Shown: in pieces, positions 1-21,757 of the stretch
How the letters are laid out: the number at the start of each line of letters is the position of its first letter
Numbering within the stretch: position 1 is the first letter of the stretch
Origin: an uncultured Actinomycetes bacterium
GTDB lineage: Bacteria; Actinomycetota; UBA4738; HRBIN12
Assembly (NCBI GenBank): GCA_963771385.1
Contig: CAVYTE010000016.1
Location: 23,664 to 87,663, forward strand
Length of the DNA stretch: 64,000 bases
Direction of reading: 5' to 3'
The notes under the pieces: model-generated
Database searches by the model: none
What the model was told of the DNA's origin: nothing
Seen by the model: only the letters and a program-made list of their open reading frames with translations
Made by a program: the position numbers and the translations under genes

Positions 1-1892
1 ATGGGCTCGAGGCGATCCGGCAGGCGATCGTCCGCATGCGCGACCCGAACACCCCGGCCGACGAGGTCGCCGAGCTCGCCGCCTCGACCCCCGCGTTCCT
101 GTACATCGCGGGCAACGTCCACGGGACCGAGGAGTCCGGGACCGATGCGTCGCTCCACGTGCTCCACGACCTGGCCGATCGCACCGATTGCGCGGCGATG
201 CGGATCGTGGACAACGCGATCGTGTTCATCCTGCCGACCCAGAACCCGGACGGACGCGAGGCCGAGACACGACGCAACGCCTACGCGTTCGACATGAACC
301 GCGACTGGTTCGCGCGCACCCAGCCCGAGACCGATGGCAAGGTCGAGCTCCTGCGACGCTACCCGCCGCTGCTGTTCGTCGACGCCCACGAGTTCGGCTA
401 CTACCGGTCGTTCTTCGCGCCGAACGACGACCCCGTCTACCACGACGCGCCGGAGCCGGTCCTCGGATGGATGAACGAGCTCTACGCGCCGGCGCTCGCC
501 AGGGAGTTCCGGGAGCGCGACTGGGGGTTCTTCAACTACGGGGGGTACGACTTCTTCATGCCCGGGTACGGCGACACGGTCCCGGCGAACGGGTTCATGG
601 CGGCCGCCTTCACCCTCGAGCACTACGACGGCGCGCCGATGGAGGTCCGCGAGCAGAAGACGCATCTGCAGTTCTGGCTCCTGCTCACGATCGCCGCCCG
701 GAACCGGCAGCGGCTGCTGATCGAGCAACACGATGCGTACGTGGAAGCGGTCGAGCAGGGTCGTCGAGGGATCCTGGAGCCCAACGGGCTGTCGAACCCG
801 CGCAGCGAACTGATCGCGGAGGTTCCCCACCGTCGGGTGCGGCACTACTTCGTGCTCGACGAGCCGGAACGCGCGTTCGAGGCCGCGTTCCTCGTGCGCC
901 GCCTGCAGCGGATGGACGTGCAGGTCTACCGGCTCGACGCCCCGCTCGAGGTCCCCGACTACCGGCCGTACGCGAGGTCACCGGTCGCGCGCACGCTCCC
1001 GGCGGGCACCTACTGGATCCCGATGGCCCAGGCGCAGAAACACTGGATCCAGCTGATGCTGAACGAGGACACGTACGTACCGGTGCGTCGCACGTACGAC
1101 ATCACCGGCTGGTCGAGCCCGTTGCTCATGAACCTCGACGGTGGATCCTCCGGGCGCAGGCTCTCGCCCTCCGCCTCGCTCGTCCCACCCGTCGACGACC
1201 CGACCTGGGACGGCGACGCGGTCGGCTCACCGCGGGTCGGCATCCTCCCGCTGTCGAAGGCCGTGTACGCGTTCGAGGGGCAGGGGCAGCTCCGCTGGTT
1301 GATGGACTCGGTGTGGCGTGTGCCCTACGAGGTCCTCACGCCCGACGACGTCCGCCGCGGGGCGCTGAACGGCGTCGACGTGCTCGTCGTGCCCTCGGGC
1401 GGATTCGTCGTCGGCCGGCGCAACCTCGGACCGGCCGGCGTCGAGCGACTCGTCGAGTGGGTCGGGGACGGGGGCAGGTACGTGGGCTACAAGTTCGGCG
1501 GTGCACTGCTCGCCGATCACATCGGCATCACGACCGCTCGATTCCGGCAATCACCGTACGAGGTCGAGGGCACGCTGATCCGGGTTCGCGTCGATCGCTC
1601 GAGCCCGCTTTCGGACGGGGTGGGTGGGGACGTCTGGGCGATGTTCTCCAGCGACGACACGATCCGCGTTCGACCGAGCCTCGCCCCCCTGCGGTATCCG
1701 CGGGCCGACGGGTTCGCGACCTCGGGCCTGTCGCTCCACACCCGTGGGCTGGCCGGTCAGCCCGCCGCCGTCGACGAGGCGTTCGGCGACGGGCGGGTGA
1801 TCCTGTTCCCCTTCGACATGAACTTCCGCGGGCTGACGCAGGGCACGCAGCGCATCCTGTGGAACGCGGTCTACGGTCCGGATCCCCGCTAG
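1..1892 (+). CDS. M14-family zinc carboxypeptidase (5' partial, continues upstream of the window)
   Basis: The frame is open from the window edge, with no stop upstream of Met36. It carries the zinc motif NVHGTEESG (HxxE) plus NRDW and DAHEF, all typical of peptidase M14. Stop is TAG at 1890-1892. Confidence 0.85.
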   Translation, partial: GLEAIRQAIVRMRDPNTPADEVAELAASTPAFLYIAGNVHGTEESGTDASLHVLHDLADRTDCAAMRIVDNAIVFILPTQNPDGREAETRRNAYAFDMNRDWFARTQPETDGKVELLRRYPPLLFVDAHEFGYYRSFFAPNDDPVYHDAPEPVLGWMNELYAPALAREFRERDWGFFNYGGYDFFMPGYGDTVPANGFMAAAFTLEHYDGAPMEVREQKTHLQFWLLLTIAARNRQRLLIEQHDAYVEAVEQGRRGILEPNGLSNPRSELIAEVPHRRVRHYFVLDEPERAFEAAFLVRRLQRMDVQVYRLDAPLEVPDYRPYARSPVARTLPAGTYWIPMAQAQKHWIQLMLNEDTYVPVRRTYDITGWSSPLLMNLDGGSSGRRLSPSASLVPPVDDPTWDGDAVGSPRVGILPLSKAVYAFEGQGQLRWLMDSVWRVPYEVLTPDDVRRGALNGVDVLVVPSGGFVVGRRNLGPAGVERLVEWVGDGGRYVGYKFGGALLADHIGITTARFRQSPYEVEGTLIRVRVDRSSPLSDGVGGDVWAMFSSDDTIRVRPSLAPLRYPRADGFATSGLSLHTRGLAGQPAAVDEAFGDGRVILFPFDMNFRGLTQGTQRILWNAVYGPDPR

Positions 1893-13716: not shown

Positions 13717-14652
13717 ATGGGCCCCCTGCCCCCGGGCTACGCGACCCGGCCCCCGACGTTCGATGACATCGAGGCGATCGCCGAGGTGCTGCTGGCCGAC
13801 GACCTGCAGGACACCGGGCAGTCGATCTACGACGCCGACTTCGTGCGCAACCAGTGGCCGGTTCGGGACTTCGATCCCGCGCGGGACGGACTGCTGGTGC
13901 TCGGACCCGGCGGCGCGGTGGTCGGGTTCGGCAACGTGCTGCCGGAGGGCGAGACCCGCGTGAAGTCCTGGGGGGTCGTCCATCCGAAGCATCGCGGCCT
14001 CGGGATCGGCTCGACGGTGTTCGACTGGATCGAGTCACGCGCGCTCGAACGGCTCGCCGGGGTCGCCGGCGCGACCTTCGAACACTCGATCAACGACGTC
14101 GACGAGGCGGCGCGCGCGATCGTGCTCGCGCGTGGCCTCCGGCCCGTCCGGAGCTTCCGGCACATGCAGATCGACCTCGATGGCCCACGCGACCCCGGCA
14201 CGCCGCCTGCCGGTGTGGAGATCCGGAGCGTCGAGGCACCGGCCGACCTCGAACGGGCCCACGCGATCTTCGTCGAGGCGTTCGAGGACGAATGGGGGTA
14301 TCGGGTTATCCCCTTCGAGGAGTGGCGCGCACTCGAGGTCGACATCCCGGGCTTCGATCCCTCGCTCTGGCTCCTGGCGAACGAGGGCGGGGACGCCGTC
14401 GGGGCCCTGAACGCCTCGGCGGACAAGGATCGAGGGTGGATCGGCGAGATCGGCGTGCGCCGCGCCTGGCGCGGGCGCGGGATCGGTTCGGCGCTCCTGC
14501 GGCGATCGTTCGCCACGTTCGCCCAACGCGGCACCCCCCGGGTCCTGTTGAACGTCGACTTCGAGAACCCGACCGGGGCGATGGCGCTCTACGAGAAGGT
14601 CGGCATGCGCGCCGTGCGCGGGTACGACGTCTTCGAGAAGCCGATCGGCTAG
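13717..14652 (+). CDS. Tandem GNAT N-acetyltransferase (MshD-like architecture)
   Basis: 311 aa with two acetyl-CoA motifs, HPKHRGLGIGSTV and RRAWRGRGIGSAL. The substrate is unknown. Confidence 0.8.
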   Translation: MGPLPPGYATRPPTFDDIEAIAEVLLADDLQDTGQSIYDADFVRNQWPVRDFDPARDGLLVLGPGGAVVGFGNVLPEGETRVKSWGVVHPKHRGLGIGSTVFDWIESRALERLAGVAGATFEHSINDVDEAARAIVLARGLRPVRSFRHMQIDLDGPRDPGTPPAGVEIRSVEAPADLERAHAIFVEAFEDEWGYRVIPFEEWRALEVDIPGFDPSLWLLANEGGDAVGALNASADKDRGWIGEIGVRRAWRGRGIGSALLRRSFATFAQRGTPRVLLNVDFENPTGAMALYEKVGMRAVRGYDVFEKPIG

Positions 14653-15350
14653 GGCTCCTTGTAGATCGCCCAGAACTTCTTGACGGGCGCGAGCGCCCTC
14701 CAGGTGGCCTTCGTGCCCTTCGGTGTGACGAGGACGTCGCCCGGTCCGGCGCGGCGGACGGTGCCATCACGGTCGGTGACCTCGACCTCGCCCTCGATCA
14801 GCACCGCGATCTCGTGGTAGGGCGGTTCCATCGGGCCGGTCTCGGGCGCCCGGCGCCACAGGCCGAAGCTGAACCGAGCGTCGCCCGCTCGGAAGACGAC
14901 GACCTCCTCCCCCGGCGGGTTCGGATCGCCCTCGCCCGTGGGGATGACCTCCCATGGGAGCGCATCGTGGCGGCTCGCCTCGAGCACGCGCACGCGGCCG
15001 TCCTGCCCATCCTCGCCCTCGCCGGCCGAGGGGAACCGCAGCGAAGCGAGCTGGGCACGCGCCCGGTCGACGGCCTGGGTGAGCCAGTCGCCGTCCTGCG
15101 GTCCCCGGTCGTCCTCGCGCGGGAACATGAACTGGTTCAGCGTCTCGTCCGACCCGAACTGGATCCCCTTCGTCCGCAGGAACTCACCCACGGCGAACTC
15201 CCAGGAGAAGAGCGCCGTTGCGTCGTCCTGCGCTTGGACGGTGTAGGTGAGGAACTGGTTGGGCTCCGCGACGAAGGTGCGAACGCCTCGCTGGGAGCGG
15301 CCGGTGCCGGGACGGAACCCCTGCTCGAGGAGCGCCTGCTCGAAGTCCAT
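14649..15350 (-). CDS. Hypothetical protein with C-terminal cupin (DUF861/EutQ-like) domain
   Basis: An intact 233-aa ORF. The C-terminal sequence FGLWRRAPETGPMEPPYHEIAVLIEGEVEVTD..GDVLVTPKG looks like a cupin barrel. The N-terminal half is unassigned. Confidence 0.6.
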   Translation of the reverse strand: MDFEQALLEQGFRPGTGRSQRGVRTFVAEPNQFLTYTVQAQDDATALFSWEFAVGEFLRTKGIQFGSDETLNQFMFPREDDRGPQDGDWLTQAVDRARAQLASLRFPSAGEGEDGQDGRVRVLEASRHDALPWEVIPTGEGDPNPPGEEVVVFRAGDARFSFGLWRRAPETGPMEPPYHEIAVLIEGEVEVTDRDGTVRRAGPGDVLVTPKGTKATWRALAPVKKFWAIYKEP

Positions 15351-15359
15351 GCCCGGAGT

Positions 15360-16379
15360 CTAGGGAACGGCTCGGAGCACGCCCTCGGGGCCGTCGGCGG
15401 ATGCCGGGCCGCGCCGCCCCCGCGCGACCGAGGCTCGCGCCTTGCCGATCCCCGAACGCAACTCGTCGGCCCCGTTGGCCACCATCGTGGACGCCTTGGC
15501 GATCTTGTTCTCGATCACCGACTCCATGACGTCGAGCAGTTTGGCGACCTCCGCGATGCATCCCTGCGCGTCGCCGGCGTCACCGAACCGGTCGGCGAGG
15601 CTGTAGAGGAAGAGCAGGACCGGCATCGCGGTGGAGTAGGGCACGACGACGACGCCGTGAGCGAACGCGTCCGCGTGCGCGCGCCGGAGCACCGCGTACG
15701 CGGCGTCGGGAACGGCCGCTACGGCCACGGGCGCCGTGAGCGCCGGGTCCAGGTACTGGGCGACCTCTCGCGCCCGGAGCGCGACCTGGCGTTCGACCTC
15801 ACGCGCCCACGTCTCGCGCTCCCCGGGGTCGTCGCAGCCCTGGAGCGCCTCGAGCTCGGCCACCGCGCTCCATTTCGAGTCGATCGGCAGCCGGCGCCCG
15901 TCCGGAAGCAACAACCCGAACTCGACCACCCGCCCGTTCACGCGCAGATCCGTTACGAGCATCCCCGGAGGCAGCTGCGCGAGATGTTCGCGCAGCAGGT
16001 TCTCGCCGGCCCGACCCTTCGCGGCGCCTCCCGCGAGCACCGTGGACAGCCGGGTCACGACCTCCCAGGACTCCCGTTCGCGCTCGCGGCGCTCCTCGTC
16101 GCGCACCGTGAGGGCCTCGAGCGCGCGCCTGGCGCCGGCGACGTCCGAACGCAGGTGCTCCGCCGAACCCTCGCGCGCCGCGGCCAGGTCGGCCAGCCGG
16201 CGGATCTCGGCGGCCTGGAGCTGGAGCCGCGCCTCGACGCCGTCCGGCGGGGTCGCCGGCCGGCGCCGCGTGGCGAGCACGCCGAACGCGGTCCCGATGC
16301 CGAGCGCGACCACGACCAGCACCAGCGTCATCTCGCCTCCGTCCATCGCTCGATCGAGGGTAGGGAGGGGGTCTGACAC
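15360..16379 (-). CDS. rmuC: DNA recombination protein RmuC-like
   Basis: An N-terminal TM segment and coiled coil are followed by a conserved core (GENLLREHLAQLPPG...VEFGLLLPDGRRLPIDSKW). An ATG at 16331, preceded by GGAGG, is a more likely start than the GTG at 16379. Confidence 0.75.
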   Translation of the reverse strand: MSDPLPTLDRAMDGGEMTLVLVVVALGIGTAFGVLATRRRPATPPDGVEARLQLQAAEIRRLADLAAAREGSAEHLRSDVAGARRALEALTVRDEERRERERESWEVVTRLSTVLAGGAAKGRAGENLLREHLAQLPPGMLVTDLRVNGRVVEFGLLLPDGRRLPIDSKWSAVAELEALQGCDDPGERETWAREVERQVALRAREVAQYLDPALTAPVAVAAVPDAAYAVLRRAHADAFAHGVVVVPYSTAMPVLLFLYSLADRFGDAGDAQGCIAEVAKLLDVMESVIENKIAKASTMVANGADELRSGIGKARASVARGRRGPASADGPEGVLRAVP

Positions 16380-16395
16380 TCCTCCCCGGTGCCTG

Positions 16396-17058
16396 CTACG
16401 AGGGGAGACGGTCGGCCGCGAGGTCCTCCAGGATCTGCGTCAGCTGCTCCTCGGGCACCGAGCCCAGCACCCTCGCGGCGTCCCCCGTCGAGTCGATGAA
16501 GACCCAGGCCGGCTGGAAGGGCACGCCGAAGCGCGCGAACAGCCGCTCGTCGGCGTCGTTCAGATGCGGGAACGAGTCGAGGCCGAACTCGTCGATGAAG
16601 TCCTGCATCGCCTCCTGCGTGTCACGCCATCCGATGCCGAGGAACCGGATCTGCGTCTCGTCGTCTCGCGCCAACTGCGCGACCAGGGGGGCCTCCCCCC
16701 GTCAGGTGCTTCACCACGGCGCCCAGAACCAGATCGCGATCGGCGTGCCGGCGAGCTCCGCCGCGTCGAACGTGCCACCTCCCACCAACGGCGCCTGGAA
16801 GTCGAGGATCTCCGGGACGGCCGCGGGCTCACTGCCGGGCGAGACCGAAGGCGGAGGTGACCCCGACGTGGGACCGCTCGCCGCGGGCGAACCGATGCCG
16901 CCGGTCGCGTCCGGTGCGACCGACGAAGCGCAGGCGGACCCGAACAGCGCGAGGAACAGGAGGATCGAGTGGGCGGACCGCACACGTCTCACCGCAGCGA
17001 TTCTACGGCGAACCCTCCGGGGTCTCGTGTCTCGGGGATCGCGTTCCCGGAGGACCAC
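16396..17058 (-). CDS. TlpA/ResA-like thiol-disulfide oxidoreductase with two in-frame TGA codons at the CxxC positions (candidate UxxU selenoprotein)
   Basis: ORF fragments 16711..17058 and 16396..16674 are in the same frame, since both low coordinates are 1 mod 3. The only stops between them are TGA at 16711-16713 and TGA at 16702-16704. Read-through gives ...PIAIWFWAPW-U-S-T-U-RGEAPLVAQLARDDETQIRFLGIGW..., which matches the WCxxC(R/K)xExP redoxin motif. The N-terminus carries a signal or lipoprotein-like peptide (ILLFLALFGSAC). The likely start is the GTG at 16983. Confidence 0.7.
16666..16700 (-). promoter_or_regulatory. Two consecutive mRNA hairpins downstream of the UGA codons (candidate SECIS elements)
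   Basis: On the minus strand, GGGGGG-AGG-CCCCCC occupies 16700-16686 and UCGCGC-AGUUG-GCGCGA occupies 16682-16666. The first hairpin starts 10 nt after UGA1. The second starts 19 nt after UGA2. Confidence 0.45.
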
Positions 17059-17125
17059 CGGGCTCGGGTAGGCTTCCGCCGACCTGGGTTCGGATCGACC
17101 AAGCGAAGGAAAGGATCGTGGCAGC

Positions 17126-18568
17126 GTGCTCGACGTCGCCAGACAAGCCGTCGCCGCGGCGATCGCCGCCGGGGCCGACTACGCGGACGGTCGGATCGTC
17201 GCGGAGGATACGGAGTCCCTCACCGTTCGGAACCAGGAGATGGAGGGCATCGACCGCTCCTCGTCCGAGGGCGTCGGGATCCGCGTCCTCGTGAACGGCT
17301 ACTGGGGGTTCGCGGCCACCGCGCGCCTCGAACCCGCCGAGATCGACGGCACCGCGGCGCTCGCCGTCGAGATCGCGAGGGCGGCCGCCCGACTGCCGAT
17401 GGAGCCGGTGCGCCTCTCCGAGGTCGAGCCCGCCACGGGCACCTGGCACTCGCCGATGCAGGAGGACCCCTTCAACGTCCCGCTCGAGGAGAAGATCGCG
17501 CTCCTCATGGAGGCGAGCCACCGGATGCAGTCCGTGAAGGGGCTGTCGTTCGCCGAAGGTGGTCTCGACCTGTTCCGGCGACGCACGTTCCTCGCGACGA
17601 GCGAGGGCACCGCGGTCGAGCAGACGACGGTGCAGTCAGGCGCCGGGATCGAGGCCACCGCGGTCGGCGACGGCGAGCTCCAGCGCCGCTCCTACCCGAA
17701 CTCGTTCCGCGGGCACATCGCGGCCCACGGGTGGGAGCACATCCAGAAGCTCGGTCTGATCGAGGAGGCCGAGCGAACGGCGACCGAGGCCGTCGAGCTC
17801 CTCGAGGCCCCGGACTGCCCGAGCGAGGTCACGACGCTCGTGATCGATTCCGGACAGGTCGAGCTCCAGATCCACGAGTCCATCGGCCACCCCGTCGAGC
17901 TCGACCGCGTGCTCGGCATGGAGGAGGCGTACGCGGGCTCCTCGTTCGTCCGGCCGCAGGACCGCGGGAGCCTCCGGTACGCGAGTCCGCTCGTGTCGAT
18001 CACCGCGGACGCGTCGCTGCCCGGGGGCCTCGGCTCGTTCGGCTGGGACGACGAGGGCGTGCCCGCGCAGCAGGTCCCGATCATCGTGGACGGGATCTTC
18101 CACAACTTCATCTCGAGCCGCGAGACCGCGAGCGTCCTCGGCCAGCCGTCCTCGGGCGCGATGCGCGCCGACGGGTGGGCGCACTACCCGCTGATCCGGA
18201 TGACGAACATCTCGATCGAGCCGCGCGAGGGGTCGCTCTCCGACATCATCGGCGACACGAAGGACGGCATGTTCTTCTCCACGAACACCTCCTGGTCGAT
18301 CGACGACCATCGCGTGAACTTCCAGTTCGGGTGCGAGGTCGCGTGGCGGATCGAGGACGGCAGGCTCACGCAGATGTACCGGAACCCGAACTACACGGGG
18401 ATCACCACCGAGTTCTGGGGCTCGTGCGACGCGGTCGGCGGGCGCGAGGACTGGACGCTCTGGGGCACGCCGAACTGCGGCAAGGGCCAGCCCGGTCAGG
18501 TGGCGCGCGTCGGTCACGGCGCGGTCCCCGCGCGGTTCCGCAACGTCCGGATCGGGGTCCGCGGCTGA
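17126..18568 (+). CDS. tldD: TldD-family metalloprotease
   Basis: 480 aa with the motif IHESIGHPVELDR (HExxxH) and TldD/PmbA family conservation throughout. Confidence 0.9.
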   Translation: MLDVARQAVAAAIAAGADYADGRIVAEDTESLTVRNQEMEGIDRSSSEGVGIRVLVNGYWGFAATARLEPAEIDGTAALAVEIARAAARLPMEPVRLSEVEPATGTWHSPMQEDPFNVPLEEKIALLMEASHRMQSVKGLSFAEGGLDLFRRRTFLATSEGTAVEQTTVQSGAGIEATAVGDGELQRRSYPNSFRGHIAAHGWEHIQKLGLIEEAERTATEAVELLEAPDCPSEVTTLVIDSGQVELQIHESIGHPVELDRVLGMEEAYAGSSFVRPQDRGSLRYASPLVSITADASLPGGLGSFGWDDEGVPAQQVPIIVDGIFHNFISSRETASVLGQPSSGAMRADGWAHYPLIRMTNISIEPREGSLSDIIGDTKDGMFFSTNTSWSIDDHRVNFQFGCEVAWRIEDGRLTQMYRNPNYTGITTEFWGSCDAVGGREDWTLWGTPNCGKGQPGQVARVGHGAVPARFRNVRIGVRG

Positions 18569-19914
18569 TGCCGGGGATCATCGGGCCCGACGAGGTGCGG
18601 CGGGTCACGCAGGCGGCGTTGGAGCTTCCGGGCGCCGAGGTCGAGGTCCTGTTCATGCACGAATGGGGCGGACTCACCCGGTTCGCGTCGAGCTCGATCC
18701 ACCAGAGCACGCACCGGGAGGACACGGGCATCCGCGTGCGCGTCGTCTCGGACGGACGGATCGGCGTCGCGGGCTCGAACGACTTCTCCCCCGACGGCGC
18801 GCGCCGCGCGGCCGAGAGCGCGCTCGAGATGGCCGAGGTCGCGGCGCCGGACCCGCAGTTCCCCGGGCTCGCACCGCCGACCCCCGTCGCCGAGCTCGAC
18901 CGGTTCGACGAGGCCACCGCGACGACGTCGCCCGATGCGCGGGCGGAGGGCGTCGCCGAGCTGGTCGGGCAGTGCCCGGAGGGCTTCACGGCCGCCGGGG
19001 CGTTCGAGACCCTGGCGAGCGAGGTCGCGATCGCGAACTCGAACGGTCAGTTCTGCTGGGCACCGTCCTCGCAGGCGTCCGTGACGACCGTGGTGAGCGG
19101 CGACGGCGGCGGCAGCGGGTTCGCGGAGGTGTTCGCGGCCGGCGTGGACGGGGTGGACCCCGCGGCGATCGGTCGGCGGGCCGCGGACAAGGCGGTCGCC
19201 TCGCGCGCGCCCGGTGACCTCGAGCCCGGCCGGTACCCGGTGGTGCTGGAGCCCGCGGCGGTCTCGACGCTCGTCGGGTTCCTCGCCTGGGTGGGGTTCG
19301 GCGGCCGGGCGCTGCACGAGGGACGCTCGTGCTTCTCGGGCAAGCAGGGCCAGCAGGTCGCGGCGCCGGCCGTCTCGATCTACGACGACGCCGCGGCGGA
19401 GGGAACGCTCGGCCTCCCGTTCGACTTCGAGGGCGTGCCGAGATCACGGGTCGACCTGATTCGCGACGGCGTCTTCCTCGGCGGCGTCTACGACCTGCGG
19501 ACCGCCACGTCGGCCGGCACGCGGACGACCGGCCACGCCCTGCCCCCGCCGAACCCGGAGGGTCCCTTCCCGCTCAACCTGTTCATGGAGCCGGGCGGAT
19601 CGAGCCTGGACGAGATGATCGCCGCCACGGACCGCGGGCTCCTGGTCACGCGGTTCCACTACACGAACGTCGTGCACCCGGTCGAGTCGACGATCACCGG
19701 CATGACCCGCGACGGCACCTTCCTGATCGAGGACGGGCGGGTCACCGGACCGGTGAAGAACTTCCGCTTCACCCAGTCGATCGTCGAGGCGCTGTCGAAC
19801 GTCGAGATGATCGGGCGGGACACCGAGCTCGCGAGCGAGTTCTTCTTCTCGGCGAGCCGGGTCCCGGCGCTCAAGATCTCCTCGTTCAACTTCAGCGGGC
19901 GCTCGGACCACTAG
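18568..19914 (+). CDS. PmbA/TldE-family protein (TldD partner)
   Basis: The ATG at 18568 overlaps the tldD TGA (TGATG). About 448 aa, ending in TldD/PmbA-type sequence (GLLVTRFHYTNVVHP...GMTRDGTFLIEDG). Confidence 0.85.
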   Translation: MPGIIGPDEVRRVTQAALELPGAEVEVLFMHEWGGLTRFASSSIHQSTHREDTGIRVRVVSDGRIGVAGSNDFSPDGARRAAESALEMAEVAAPDPQFPGLAPPTPVAELDRFDEATATTSPDARAEGVAELVGQCPEGFTAAGAFETLASEVAIANSNGQFCWAPSSQASVTTVVSGDGGGSGFAEVFAAGVDGVDPAAIGRRAADKAVASRAPGDLEPGRYPVVLEPAAVSTLVGFLAWVGFGGRALHEGRSCFSGKQGQQVAAPAVSIYDDAAAEGTLGLPFDFEGVPRSRVDLIRDGVFLGGVYDLRTATSAGTRTTGHALPPPNPEGPFPLNLFMEPGGSSLDEMIAATDRGLLVTRFHYTNVVHPVESTITGMTRDGTFLIEDGRVTGPVKNFRFTQSIVEALSNVEMIGRDTELASEFFFSASRVPALKISSFNFSGRSDH

Positions 19915-19990
19915 GGGCGCCGCCCGGCGGGTGCGGACGGGTCGGCGATAGACTCTCCGACGCCGCTTCCCACGATCGGAGGTACCGGCG

Positions 19991-20443
19991 ATGCAGGTCC
20001 GCGACATCATGCACACCGATGTGAAGACGACCTCGCCCGGCGACACGTTCGAGCACGTCGCGACGATGCTCCACGACCACGGGATCTCGTCCGTCGTCGT
20101 CCTGGACGAGGAGAGCCTCGTCGGGATCGTGACGGAGCGCGACCTCGTGAACGTCGTGGCCGAGGGGCGCGACCCGAAGGCCACGACGGTCGGCGAGCGT
20201 ATGACGCGCGACCTCGACACCGTCGAGCCGAAGACCGACATCGCCGAGGCGGCCGAGCACATGGCGCGTTTGAAGATCCGTCACCTCCCGGTCGTGCAGG
20301 AGGGAGCGCTCGCCGGGATTATCTCGATCCGGGACCTGACGAACTGGGCCGTCCACGAGCTCACGTCCGGCCACGAGCTGCCCGACCTCGAACGCAGCCA
20401 CACCGCGTTGTCCGCCGCGGCCGAGGTCAACCGCGCGCAGTAG
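19991..20443 (+). CDS. CBS-pair domain protein
   Basis: 150 aa with two CBS motifs, ISSVVVLDEESLVGIVTERDL and IRHLPVVQEGALAGIISIRDL. Confidence 0.85.
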   Translation: MQVRDIMHTDVKTTSPGDTFEHVATMLHDHGISSVVVLDEESLVGIVTERDLVNVVAEGRDPKATTVGERMTRDLDTVEPKTDIAEAAEHMARLKIRHLPVVQEGALAGIISIRDLTNWAVHELTSGHELPDLERSHTALSAAAEVNRAQ

Positions 20444-20446
20444 CCC

Positions 20447-21757
20447 TCAGCCGGGATCCGCCGGCGTGGAACCGGCGGCTCGTTCGAACGGTCCGCGCGG
20501 ATGTTCGAGGGAGCCGAGCTGCGCGAGATCGCGCGGGAACAGCAGCGCGACCGTCCAGTCGACGGCGATCTTCACCTTCCGCGTTAGGGTCGGCATCGCG
20601 AGCAGGTGGTACGAGCGATGCGCGAACCAGGCGGGGAACCCACGCAACCGGACCCCGAAGATCGCCGCGACGCCCTTGTACCGTCCGAGCGAGCACACCG
20701 ATCCGATGCCTCGGTAGTCGAACGGTTCCAACGGCACCCCTCCGAGCGTCGCGAGGAGGTTGCCTGCCAGGTGTGTGCCTTGGCGCATCCCGTGCTGCGC
20801 GGTCGGGGGCATCGTGCCACCGGTTCCGACCTCGGGGACCGCCGCCGCGTCCCCGGCCGCCCACGCGTCCTCGACACCTTCGACACGGAGGTACACGTCG
20901 GTCCGGACCCGGCCGTCCCCGTCCACGGGGAACCCGGAGGCAGCCGCGAGCGGTGACGGCTTGACGCCGGCCGTCCACACGAGGGTGTCCGCCGGGAACG
21001 CCTGTCCGTCCGAGAGCCGGACCACCCCGCCCTCCGCGGAGTCGAGGCGGGTCCGGAGCAGCACCTCGATCCCGCGTTCCTCCAGCCGCGCTCGCGCGTA
21101 GTCGGCCAGGGCCGGTCCGAGCTCGGGGAGGATCTGGTCCGCGGCCTCGACGAGCACCCACCGAAGCTCGGGACGCCGGAGACCCCGGTAGCTCCGCACC
21201 GCGTCGCGCGCGAGGTCCTCGAGCTCGCCGAGCGCCTCGACCCCCGCGAAGCCGCCGCCGACGAAGACGAACGTCAGGGCGGCGAGGCGGCGCTCCGGAT
21301 CGTCTGCCACCTCGGCGAGGTCCAGGCGCGACAACACCCGGTTGCGCAGCCAGATCGCCTCCTGAACGGTCTTGAACCCCACCGCACGCTCCGCGAGCCC
21401 GGGGATCGGGAGCACGCGCGCCCAGGACCCGGCCGCGAGCACGACGACGTCGTAGTCGAGCGAGGTCTCCCGTCCGTCCGGCAACCGCACCGACGCGCGC
21501 CGGGATGCGTGGTCCACGCGCTCGACCTCACCGATCACGACCTCGCAGTGGCGGAGCACGCGGCGGAGCGGGACGACGACCGCGCGCGGGTCGATCGTTC
21601 CCGAGGCGACCTCGGGCAGGAACGGCTGGTACTGCATGAAGTTCTCGGGGTTGACGACCGTCACGCGGTGGCCGAGCGCGACCGCGCCTCGGAGCCGCAT
21701 CGCCGCGTACAGCCCCGCGAAGCCGGCGCCGACGACGAGGATCCGTTGCCCGGTCAC
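20447..21757 (-). CDS. ndh: Type II NADH dehydrogenase (NDH-2)
   Basis: 436 aa with two dinucleotide-binding motifs, ILVVGAGFAGL and FVFVGGGFAGVE, and C-terminal membrane-association helices. Confidence 0.9.
   Translation of the reverse strand: MTGQRILVVGAGFAGLYAAMRLRGAVALGHRVTVVNPENFMQYQPFLPEVASGTIDPRAVVVPLRRVLRHCEVVIGEVERVDHASRRASVRLPDGRETSLDYDVVVLAAGSWARVLPIPGLAERAVGFKTVQEAIWLRNRVLSRLDLAEVADDPERRLAALTFVFVGGGFAGVEALGELEDLARDAVRSYRGLRRPELRWVLVEAADQILPELGPALADYARARLEERGIEVLLRTRLDSAEGGVVRLSDGQAFPADTLVWTAGVKPSPLAAASGFPVDGDGRVRTDVYLRVEGVEDAWAAGDAAAVPEVGTGGTMPPTAQHGMRQGTHLAGNLLATLGGVPLEPFDYRGIGSVCSLGRYKGVAAIFGVRLRGFPAWFAHRSYHLLAMPTLTRKVKIAVDWTVALLFPRDLAQLGSLEHPRGPFERAAGSTPADPG

Follow-up and report, generated by a model that had tools for sequence, protein, structure and literature searches.

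A stretch of 64,000 nucleotides from an uncultured Actinomycetes bacterium, called the window in what follows, carries on its minus strand (16396..17058) the gene of a TlpA/ResA/Prx-like thioredoxin-fold selenoprotein that is read through two in-frame TGA codons and whose mRNA can fold, directly after these codons, into two adjacent hairpins. Comparison with its relatives shows an RNA element that is conserved, covarying and specific to genes with a UGA at the first active-site Cys. We consider it probable that the two hairpins together form one bipartite bacterial selenocysteine insertion sequence (SECIS), which characterizes a clade, here called type B, of exported TlpA/Prx-like selenoproteins from high-GC, Actinomycetes-like bacteria. 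The selenoprotein family and its UxxU motif (U being selenocysteine, Sec) are already known, and the bipartite architecture is the new part.

Across the active site the minus strand of the window reads ...ATC TGG TTC TGG GCG CCG TGG TGA AGC ACC TGA CGG GGG GAG GCC CCC CTG GTC GCG CAG TTG GCG CGA GAC..., which translates in frame as I-W-F-W-A-P-W-*-S-T-*-R-G-E-A-P-L-V-A-Q-L-A-R-D and continues for 100 more codons up to the TAG stop codon (16398-16396, minus strand); the start codon is uncertain. The active site is WAPW-U-S-T-U-RGEAP, a CxxC written as UxxU. With both stops replaced by Cys, the protein matches the Pfam families AhpC-TSA (E = 5e-10), Redoxin (E = 1e-8), Thioredoxin_8, Thioredoxin and Thioredoxin_2 above cutoffs. 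NCBIfam gives only sub-threshold matches to ResA, DsbE, TlpA and the ResA-like WAxxUGC selenoprotein model, and no NCBIfam selenoprotein model reaches its cutoff for the window protein (WAxxUGC_long, 32 bits versus a cutoff of 300). Positions in the mRNA are counted in nucleotides (nt) from the U of the first UGA, so that the window coordinate equals 16714 - n. UGA1 (nt 1-3; 16713-16711, minus strand) corresponds to the first Cys of CxxC, where about 100 family members have TGA and 74 Cys-form homologues have TGC or TGT. UGA2 (nt 10-12; 16704-16702, minus strand) corresponds to the second Cys, and within type B it is common only to the window and one related locus, L001, among the matches listed. 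The two TGAs thus occupy exactly the two Cys positions of the WxxWCxxC / WFWAPWCxxC motif of the 74 Cys homologues, and the conclusion that they are genuine recoded codons at both Cys positions of a thioredoxin-fold CxxC active site is supported. A genome-wide reassignment of UGA was rejected, since TGA is the stop codon of 12 of the 26 confident open reading frames (ORFs) of the window.

The relatives were gathered in three ways. A protein search retrieved eight database proteins that end exactly at ...WFWAPW, and the contigs that encode them (L001-L008) all run on in frame beyond a TGA; seven of them (L002-L008) read TGA-x-x-TGC and L001 alone has a second TGA. A scan of GTDB species genomes gave 80 loci, of which 74 are ordinary WFWAPWCxxC Cys forms (GC 0.74) that served as the comparison set, while L009, L010 and L013, from three uncultured Actinomycetes metagenome-assembled genomes (MAGs), are U-x-x-C. 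Finally, a metagenome scan for TGGTTYTGGGCNCCNTGGTGA returned at least 120 stretches, about 105 of them true family members. The resulting family sample holds at least 106 unique WFWAPW-UGA sequences (from the UGA to +78), and the counts of type A and type B given below are those among the matches listed.

On the mRNA (minus strand) the region reads UGG UGA AGC ACC UGA C GGGGGG AGG CCCCCC UG G UCGCGC AGUUG GCGCGA. Hairpin 1 (16701-16684, nt 13-30, minus strand) has a 7-bp stem, the loop AGGC and a folding free energy (dG) of -14.2 kcal/mol, and encodes R-G-E-A-P-L; its G6/C6 core lies at 16700-16686, and flanking C:G and G.U pairs extend the stem to the full span. Hairpin 2 (16682-16666, nt 32-48, minus strand) has the 6-bp stem UCGCGC/GCGCGA, the loop AGUUG at 16676-16672 and a dG of -10.0 kcal/mol. 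Counted from UGA1, hairpin 1 starts at 9-10 nt and hairpin 2 at 28 nt. An earlier note, made from the letters of the window, had proposed tandem hairpins here, with the G6 run 10 nt after UGA1 and 1 nt after UGA2 and hairpin 2 19 nt after UGA2, and had every coordinate right; its remark that the G6/C6 hairpin also encodes GEAP is confirmed by the frame W-U-S-T-U-R-G-E-A-P-L-V-A-Q-L-A-R. The folding check which it suggested gave a divided answer: RNAfold predicts both hairpins in the window sequence, but the 81-nt fold is no better than its dinucleotide shuffles (z = 0.44), so there is no excess stability in the single sequence. Because this value comes from DNA of 71% GC, a single sequence cannot separate the hairpins from GC-rich chance, and single-sequence thermodynamics were set aside as uninformative in favour of comparative and codon-resampling tests. 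Resampling of synonymous codons for the window peptide, a conservative null as it includes the codon usage of type B, gave p = 0.016 for hairpin 1 and p = 0.11 for hairpin 2. Rfam gave no match at gathering thresholds in the whole window, and a permissive scan of 16560-16800 gave one meaningless match of 8.9 bits.

Folding of each member separately splits the family into type A (58 unique sequences) and type B (41 unique sequences, the window included). Type A sequences, with a mean GC of 0.61 and many of them from marine samples, form a single hairpin, in which the loop at nt 30-33 is always GGUC and the helix is made up of an inner (26-29/34-37) and an outer stem (22-24/39-41) (e.g. L119, L128, L193; among L092-L208). 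These stems covary, with pair 27:36 found as UA, CG or GC, 28:35 as GC, UA or AU, and 24:39 as CG, UA, AU or GC, and stable structure within nt 10-31 is seen in 0/58 type A sequences. Type B sequences (GC 0.71), from soil and Actinomycetes MAGs, have two directly adjacent hairpins, the first within nt 11-31 (5-8 bp, dG -7 to -18.7 kcal/mol) and the second at nt 30-50 (6-9 bp, dG -8.7 to -15.3 kcal/mol). Hairpin 2 is present in 41/41 and hairpin 1 in 39-41 of the 41, though the peptides differ; the structure is kept, then, among the UGA-containing orthologues of this type. Presence of hairpin 1 goes with the position of the downstream loop: where the loop G is at nt 30 hairpin 1 occurs in 0/58 sequences, where it is at nt 39 in 40/42. 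The offset between the type A loop and the loop of type B hairpin 2 is exactly 9 nt, or three codons, which equals the distance from UGA1 to UGA2. One divergent sequence, L142 (L142:298-363, minus strand; 66 nt from the TGA), combines a hairpin 1 with a type-A-like distal hairpin, GGCUGC-GGUC-GCAGCC at nt 33-48, whose loop has moved to nt 39, and may be an intermediate or a convergent form between the two architectures.

Concerning selection on the type B hairpins, mean dG is -11.9 kcal/mol for hairpin 1 and -11.5 kcal/mol for hairpin 2, against -6.3 and -6.5 at the homologous positions of the Cys forms (n=74), whose GC is no lower (Mann-Whitney p = 7e-12 and 2e-13, respectively). Values of -8 kcal/mol or lower are reached by 95% (hairpin 1) and 100% (hairpin 2) of type B versus 24% and 30% of Cys forms. 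Codon choice points the same way: in the 11 Cys forms that encode the same xGEAP peptide the Gly codon is GGC in 11/11 and a G6/C6 stem is formed in none, whereas the Sec forms use GGG. Since same-peptide Cys forms use GGC and lack the stem, and given the covariation described below and the gap in dG, the hairpins are read as a Sec-specific recoding element and not as a by-product of coding. The earlier note had held that its SECIS idea would fail if Cys-containing orthologues kept the same stems through codon usage; the idea survived, with the Cys forms as a group lacking both hairpins, and its SECIS reading agrees with hairpins that are Sec-specific and placed where a bacterial SECIS is expected.

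Compensatory changes, for which the same note had advised to look among orthologues, are present in both hairpins. Hairpin 2 is recovered by RNAalifold from the ungapped alignment A2 (41 x 66) with double changes in 4/5 pairs (U:A to C:G, C:G to U:A, C:G to A:U, G:C to U:A), and over 7 pairs 88.5% of the cells are paired. Residue replacements on one arm are offset by synonymous changes on the other, as in GCG...GCG -> GCU...GAG (Ala-Ala -> Ala-Glu). The stems of hairpin 1 include CGGGGGG/CCCCCUG, CGAGGGG/CCCCUCG, CAGGGG/CCCCUG, CCGGG/CCCGG, GCCGGGCG/CGCCCGGC, CGGCGC/GCGCCG and CAGGC/GCCUG, and the peptides encoded by these varied stems are RGEAP, NREAP, QGAAP, RATAP, RRDAP and QGETP. Two registers of hairpin 1 covary above all 500 shuffles; the register shifts by 1-2 nt between sublineages, which blurs fixed-column statistics, and RNAalifold on fixed columns did not return hairpin 1, nor did the covariance model R1 succeed in re-registering it. 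As these shifts defeat fixed columns, what speaks for hairpin 1 is the folding of each sequence by itself, set against controls. With a covariance model of the whole tandem, type-B loci reach 39-83 bits and the window, whose 64 kb contain no other match, reaches 71 bits; the corresponding site in 77 Cys-form loci does not exceed 37 bits. Moreover, the first 55 nt after UGA1 show zero nucleotide differences between the window (16659-16713) and L001 (3331-3385), with a synonymous divergence (dS) of 0.33 in the rest of the gene, a pattern which indicates that synonymous change has been suppressed across the hairpin region.

Two further candidates were rejected. The 28.7-bit match of the covariance model at L197:4770-4831 (minus strand) is a chance one, located in a methyltransferase-like ORF whose frame does not include the TGA. 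An enclosing stem of nt 6-12 with nt 51-57, which would make a three-way junction, pairs in only 57.5% of the cells, and its well-paired columns are invariant codons. It can be observed that such a junction does appear in several minimum free energy folds (e.g. L112, L120, L197, L204), in which the x-x-Cys codons pair with (C)AG-UAC/UUC-GAG; the stem is not formed in the window.

These comparisons bear on the reading by which the hairpins are incidental, being the self-complementary GC-rich code for a conserved RGEAPLVAQxAR, or by which the gene with two TGAs is a pseudogene or owes them to faulty assembly. Such a reading could appeal to the z value of the fold, to the 24-30% of Cys forms that also reach -8 kcal/mol and to loops that are partly dictated by residues. 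It is largely refuted by the comparative data and we hold it to be very improbable: Cys forms with the same GEAP use other codons and form no stem, type B differs from the Cys forms at p ~1e-12, and stems are kept through residue changes that are matched synonymously on the other arm. As for pseudogenes and errors, the double TGA is found in two independent assemblies (window and L001) that differ at 10% of nucleotides, and the ratio of non-synonymous to synonymous substitution rates (dN/dS) downstream of UGA2 is 0.15 (20 synonymous versus 11 non-synonymous differences between the two). This value argues that the ORF downstream of UGA2 is translated; the substitution pattern shows that the gene stayed under purifying selection after UGA2 arose.

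The bacterial SECIS (bSECIS) consensus, which goes back to the bSECISearch model (Zhang & Gladyshev 2005; summary in PMC13188914), asks for a loop of 3-9 nt, an upper stem of 4-16 bp, a dG of -7.5 kcal/mol or lower, a G as first or second loop nucleotide, as a rule with G or U after it, and 16-37 nt between UGA and loop (PMC13188914). Both window hairpins are stem-loops within the coding sequence, 3' of a Sec-UGA that aligns with Cys, and agree with the consensus in loop, stem and dG. They part in spacing. Hairpin 2 lies 34 nt from UGA1 and 25 nt from UGA2, within range for both, and hairpin 1 lies 16 nt from UGA1, at the lower limit, and 7 nt from UGA2, where it fails. Over type B as a whole, hairpin 2 agrees with the consensus in 41/41 members, and hairpin 1 in 20/41 and never for UGA2; the 21/41 failures are due to a spacing below 16 nt or to the lack of a G in the first two loop positions, with spacings of 14-15 nt from UGA1 in 18/41 and a missed loop G in 7/41 (loops CACCGC, ACCG, UCAG, AAGC). 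The loops differ in the same sense. Those of hairpin 2 follow a common motif, (A)GGU(N), being AGGUG in 10 sequences, GGU in 10, AGGUC in 7, AGUUG in 5, GGUCU in 4, GGC in 4 and GUU in 1, and its apex GC-AGGUC-GC is essentially the type-A apex GC-GGUC-GC. Hairpin 1 has 20 different loops with no common motif, none of them with GU. Because hairpin 2 agrees with the consensus throughout and resembles type A at its apex, and hairpin 1 does so in 20/41, SelB binding is assigned to hairpin 2, which on loop conservation and spacing is the likely SelB-binding stem-loop.

The converse assignment makes hairpin 1 the SelB-binding SECIS for UGA1 in all type B genes, with hairpin 2 an accessory or second site that was co-opted for UGA2 in the UxxU lineage. 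In the window itself hairpin 1 agrees with every bSECIS criterion for UGA1 (loop AGGC, 16 nt, dG -14.2 kcal/mol), its loop starts at nt 18-21, close to the GGUC loop of E. coli fdhF at nt 22-25, and, as it cannot serve UGA2 at 7 nt while hairpin 2 can, a SelB site in hairpin 1 would mean that UxxU geometrically needs two sites. This is the alternative closest to the arrangement of one hairpin per UGA. We regard it as unlikely, since hairpin 2 is equally conserved and covarying in the 39 single-UGA members, where the alternative leaves it without a job, the hairpin 1 loops are as diverse as described, with 21/41 outside the consensus, and an independent UxxU clade manages with one hairpin.

That clade (L124, L163, L176) comes from the wider distribution of UxxU, which occurs in five of the 101 family members with a full-length domain, in two separate clades (among the matches listed). 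Its members share 54-67% mutual protein identity, have UxxC forms as nearest other relatives and belong to type A, with a single GGUC hairpin 26 nt from UGA1 and 17 nt from UGA2; one hairpin is therefore enough for UxxU. Their motif reads WFWAPW-TGA-CCG-TTT/GTT-TGA, and the clade is independent and older. The window and L001, in turn, share TGA AGC ACC TGA and are 91% identical in protein and 90% in nucleotides, and the relatives next closest to them, which are UxxC, reach at most 70% identity. As read from these alignments, UGA2 is a derived and recent change from TGC to TGA, that is, from a Cys to a Sec codon. In addition, 39/41 type B sequences have a single UGA (UxxC), and for this reason the tandem hairpins must be older than UGA2. 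The suggestion of the earlier note that there is one hairpin per UGA, as the logic of a UxxU motif, does not stand up to these findings as an account of origin: tandem hairpins occur in single-UGA genes, UGA2 is derived, the second UxxU clade has one hairpin, and only hairpin 2 combines a conserved G-G/U loop with consensus spacing in every member. A weaker form may hold, in which the two hairpins act at different steps, the spacing from hairpin 2 to UGA2 being that from the single-hairpin SECIS to UGA1.

Recoding of UGA2 does not by itself specify Sec. The hairpins could be a SECIS and UGA2, or both UGAs, could still be read as Cys by a tRNA of the tRNA-ReC/SelC* type that depends on SelB and the SECIS, or as Trp through near-cognate read-through of a leaky UGA-C, so that the site would effectively be UxxC or UxxW. 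tRNA-ReC inserts Cys at UGA in a SECIS-dependent way, and tRNA-ReC-like genes are enriched in genomes with UXXU hydrogenases (~56% vs 2.3%), in which one or both UGAs may then stand for Cys (PMC13582414); UGA2 of the window is followed by C, and the ancestral residue there is Cys. Nevertheless we judge this decidedly improbable. ARAGORN found no tRNA or tRNA-Sec gene in the window or the closest loci, except one tRNA-Arg in L010, which leaves the tRNA-ReC idea without support there. UxxU persists in the second clade across 55-67% protein identity, suggesting that the TGA itself is maintained, and a Trp at the position of the resolving Cys would destroy the redox motif, at odds with the low dN/dS.

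In the mechanism that we propose for the bipartite SECIS, hairpin 2, with its GC-rich stem and (A)GGU(N) loop similar to that of type A and to the GGUC of fdhF, would bind SelB and serve both UGAs. About 9 nt of mRNA past the A-site codon lie in the ribosomal mRNA channel, so hairpin 1, which begins 9-10 nt after UGA1, would sit at the channel entrance with UGA1 in the A site. There it would act as an accessory spacer helix: by taking up some 18 nt it would draw hairpin 2, which would else lie 27-28 nt off, close enough to function. With hairpin 1 folded, about 10 nt and the width of one helix would separate UGA1 from the foot of hairpin 2. As a pause helix, hairpin 1 may in addition slow the ribosome. 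Three codons on, with UGA2 in the A site, hairpin 1 would be melted, and so it would be positioned to matter only during decoding of UGA1. Relative to UGA2 the stem base of hairpin 2 would then be at nt 22 and its loop G at nt 30, which is exactly the geometry of type A to UGA1, and hairpin 2 would thereby direct insertion at UGA2 as well. The product would carry a UxxU redox centre with the potential for a diselenide. Put in general terms, type B might represent a previously undescribed class of bipartite SECIS with a two-register design, in which a sequence-nonspecific hairpin 1 shortens the path to a distal SelB-binding hairpin 2 and its melting puts hairpin 2 at standard spacing for a codon 9 nt downstream; we advance this only tentatively, as a possibility that has somewhat less than even odds. 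If true, the two-register design would explain how the second Cys codon could become a Sec codon without change in the SECIS, and type-B genes would allow the sensing of UGA-SECIS distance to be measured in a natural setting.

It should be noted that several points weigh against a bipartite SECIS with its SelB site in hairpin 2. The fold lacks excess stability in the single sequence, as reported above. The choice of SelB site is drawn from loop conservation and spacing, and the loops are in part coding effects: Gln-Val codons (CAG GUN) dictate part of the (A)GGU loop in hairpin 2, and Glu-Ala codons part of the AGGC loop in hairpin 1. The loop of hairpin 1, at nt 18-21, is near the SelB-minihelix loop of fdhF at nt 22, and given this E. 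coli-like placement hairpin 1 itself could be the SelB site. Its column-wise covariation is blurred by register slippage, with slid controls near or above the named register, and as few as two or three evolutionary events may underlie the association of hairpin 1 with the position of the loop. Lastly, Sec competence of the host is deduced from the gene family, with no selA, selB, selD or tRNA-Sec within the 64-kb window; neither the window nor the fetched loci contain selA, selB or selD, and tblastn with E. coli SelA, SelB and SelD gave weak generic GTPase matches only.

Compared with known bSECIS elements and that of E. coli fdhF, type B has in common an in-frame stem-loop just after the Sec-UGA and a small loop with an early G followed by G/U, the (A)GGU(C/G) loop of hairpin 2 being close to the GGUC of fdhF. 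It differs in that those are single stem-loops, while type B has two separate, adjacent, conserved hairpins. In fdhF a lower stem that begins at the UGA carries an upper minihelix; in type B the stretch from the UGA to the SelB-like hairpin is occupied by a second helix, and the SelB-like hairpin is the distal one, its distance of 34-35 nt from UGA1 being close to the upper limit of what the consensus allows. In programmed frameshifting and stop-codon read-through, stimulatory hairpins and pseudoknots downstream abut the ribosomal mRNA entrance, and hairpin 1 resembles them as a very stable GC helix 9-10 nt after a recoded codon; no such function is implied for it, and the pausing role given to it above is a conjecture.

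A UxxU served by one in-frame SECIS is said to occur in bacterial SelL (SELENOL), for which a diselenide was reportedly shown as well (in work of Shchedrina et al. in PNAS in 2007); for the window protein it is the UxxU motif that is known, from sequence. For UXXU Group 4 [NiFeSe] hydrogenases a single downstream SECIS has likewise been proposed to serve both UGAs, the step from one to two UGAs needing no change in the SECIS (PMC13582414). As in both these systems, the window has UGAs two codons apart at a CxxC-type motif, with hairpin 2 in the consensus range of both; unlike them, which have a single stem-loop, it has an extra conserved hairpin 1 that starts 1 nt after UGA2. Concerning the protein, Prx-like thiol:disulfide oxidoreductase (PF00578) and TlpA-like (cd02966) selenoproteins with UxxC or UxxU and 1-2 Sec have been described (PMC13188914, PMC9312934), and UxxU was found in the 'Prx-like 2' family of the GOS survey (PMC2398784). 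Likened by domain and motif, the window protein shares with them the thioredoxin fold (AhpC-TSA/Redoxin), Sec at the first Cys of CxxC, occasional UxxU and many Cys homologues; the reviews list motifs and not SECIS architecture. We found in the literature no description of a conserved tandem-hairpin SECIS with a distal SelB-like hairpin, nor of two SECIS architectures offset by exactly three codons in one family.

Models of bacterial SECIS elements, and the searches based on them, assume one stem-loop 16-37 nt from the UGA; a 2026 review points out that some selenoprotein genes misfit this model (PMC13188914). The present family offers a natural comparison between single hairpins (loop at nt 30) and tandems (SelB-like loop at nt 39), each of which independently gave rise to UxxU (double-Sec) variants. 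It makes testable how the spacing from UGA to SelB-binding loop is enforced, whether a helix in between can offset extra distance and how one element serves two UGAs three codons apart. There is also a practical side, as gene callers split such genes into two 'hypothetical' ORFs. In the fetched loci the N-terminal part is called as a 'hypothetical protein' and the C-terminal part as a separate ORF of 71-92 aa.

At its N-terminus (window 16900-16990, minus strand) the selenoprotein shows a basic N-region, a hydrophobic stretch and LFGSAC (ASAC in orthologues), similar to a signal peptide or lipobox. With this signal/lipobox-like sequence, the protein is probably exported or membrane-anchored. 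When further selenoprotein genes with an in-frame TGA were sought across the window and the type-B loci, only adjacent same-frame genes turned up. The neighbourhood described spans 13717-21757. Directly downstream of the selenoprotein gene lies RmuC (15360-16379, minus strand), which follows it in L001 and L002 too, and beyond are an EutQ-like cupin (14649-15350, minus) and a GNAT acetyltransferase (13717-14652, plus). On the other side are a divergent TldD/PmbA pair (17126-18568 and 18568-19914, plus), a CBS-pair protein (19991-20443, plus) and a pyridine nucleotide-disulphide oxidoreductase (20447-21757, minus).

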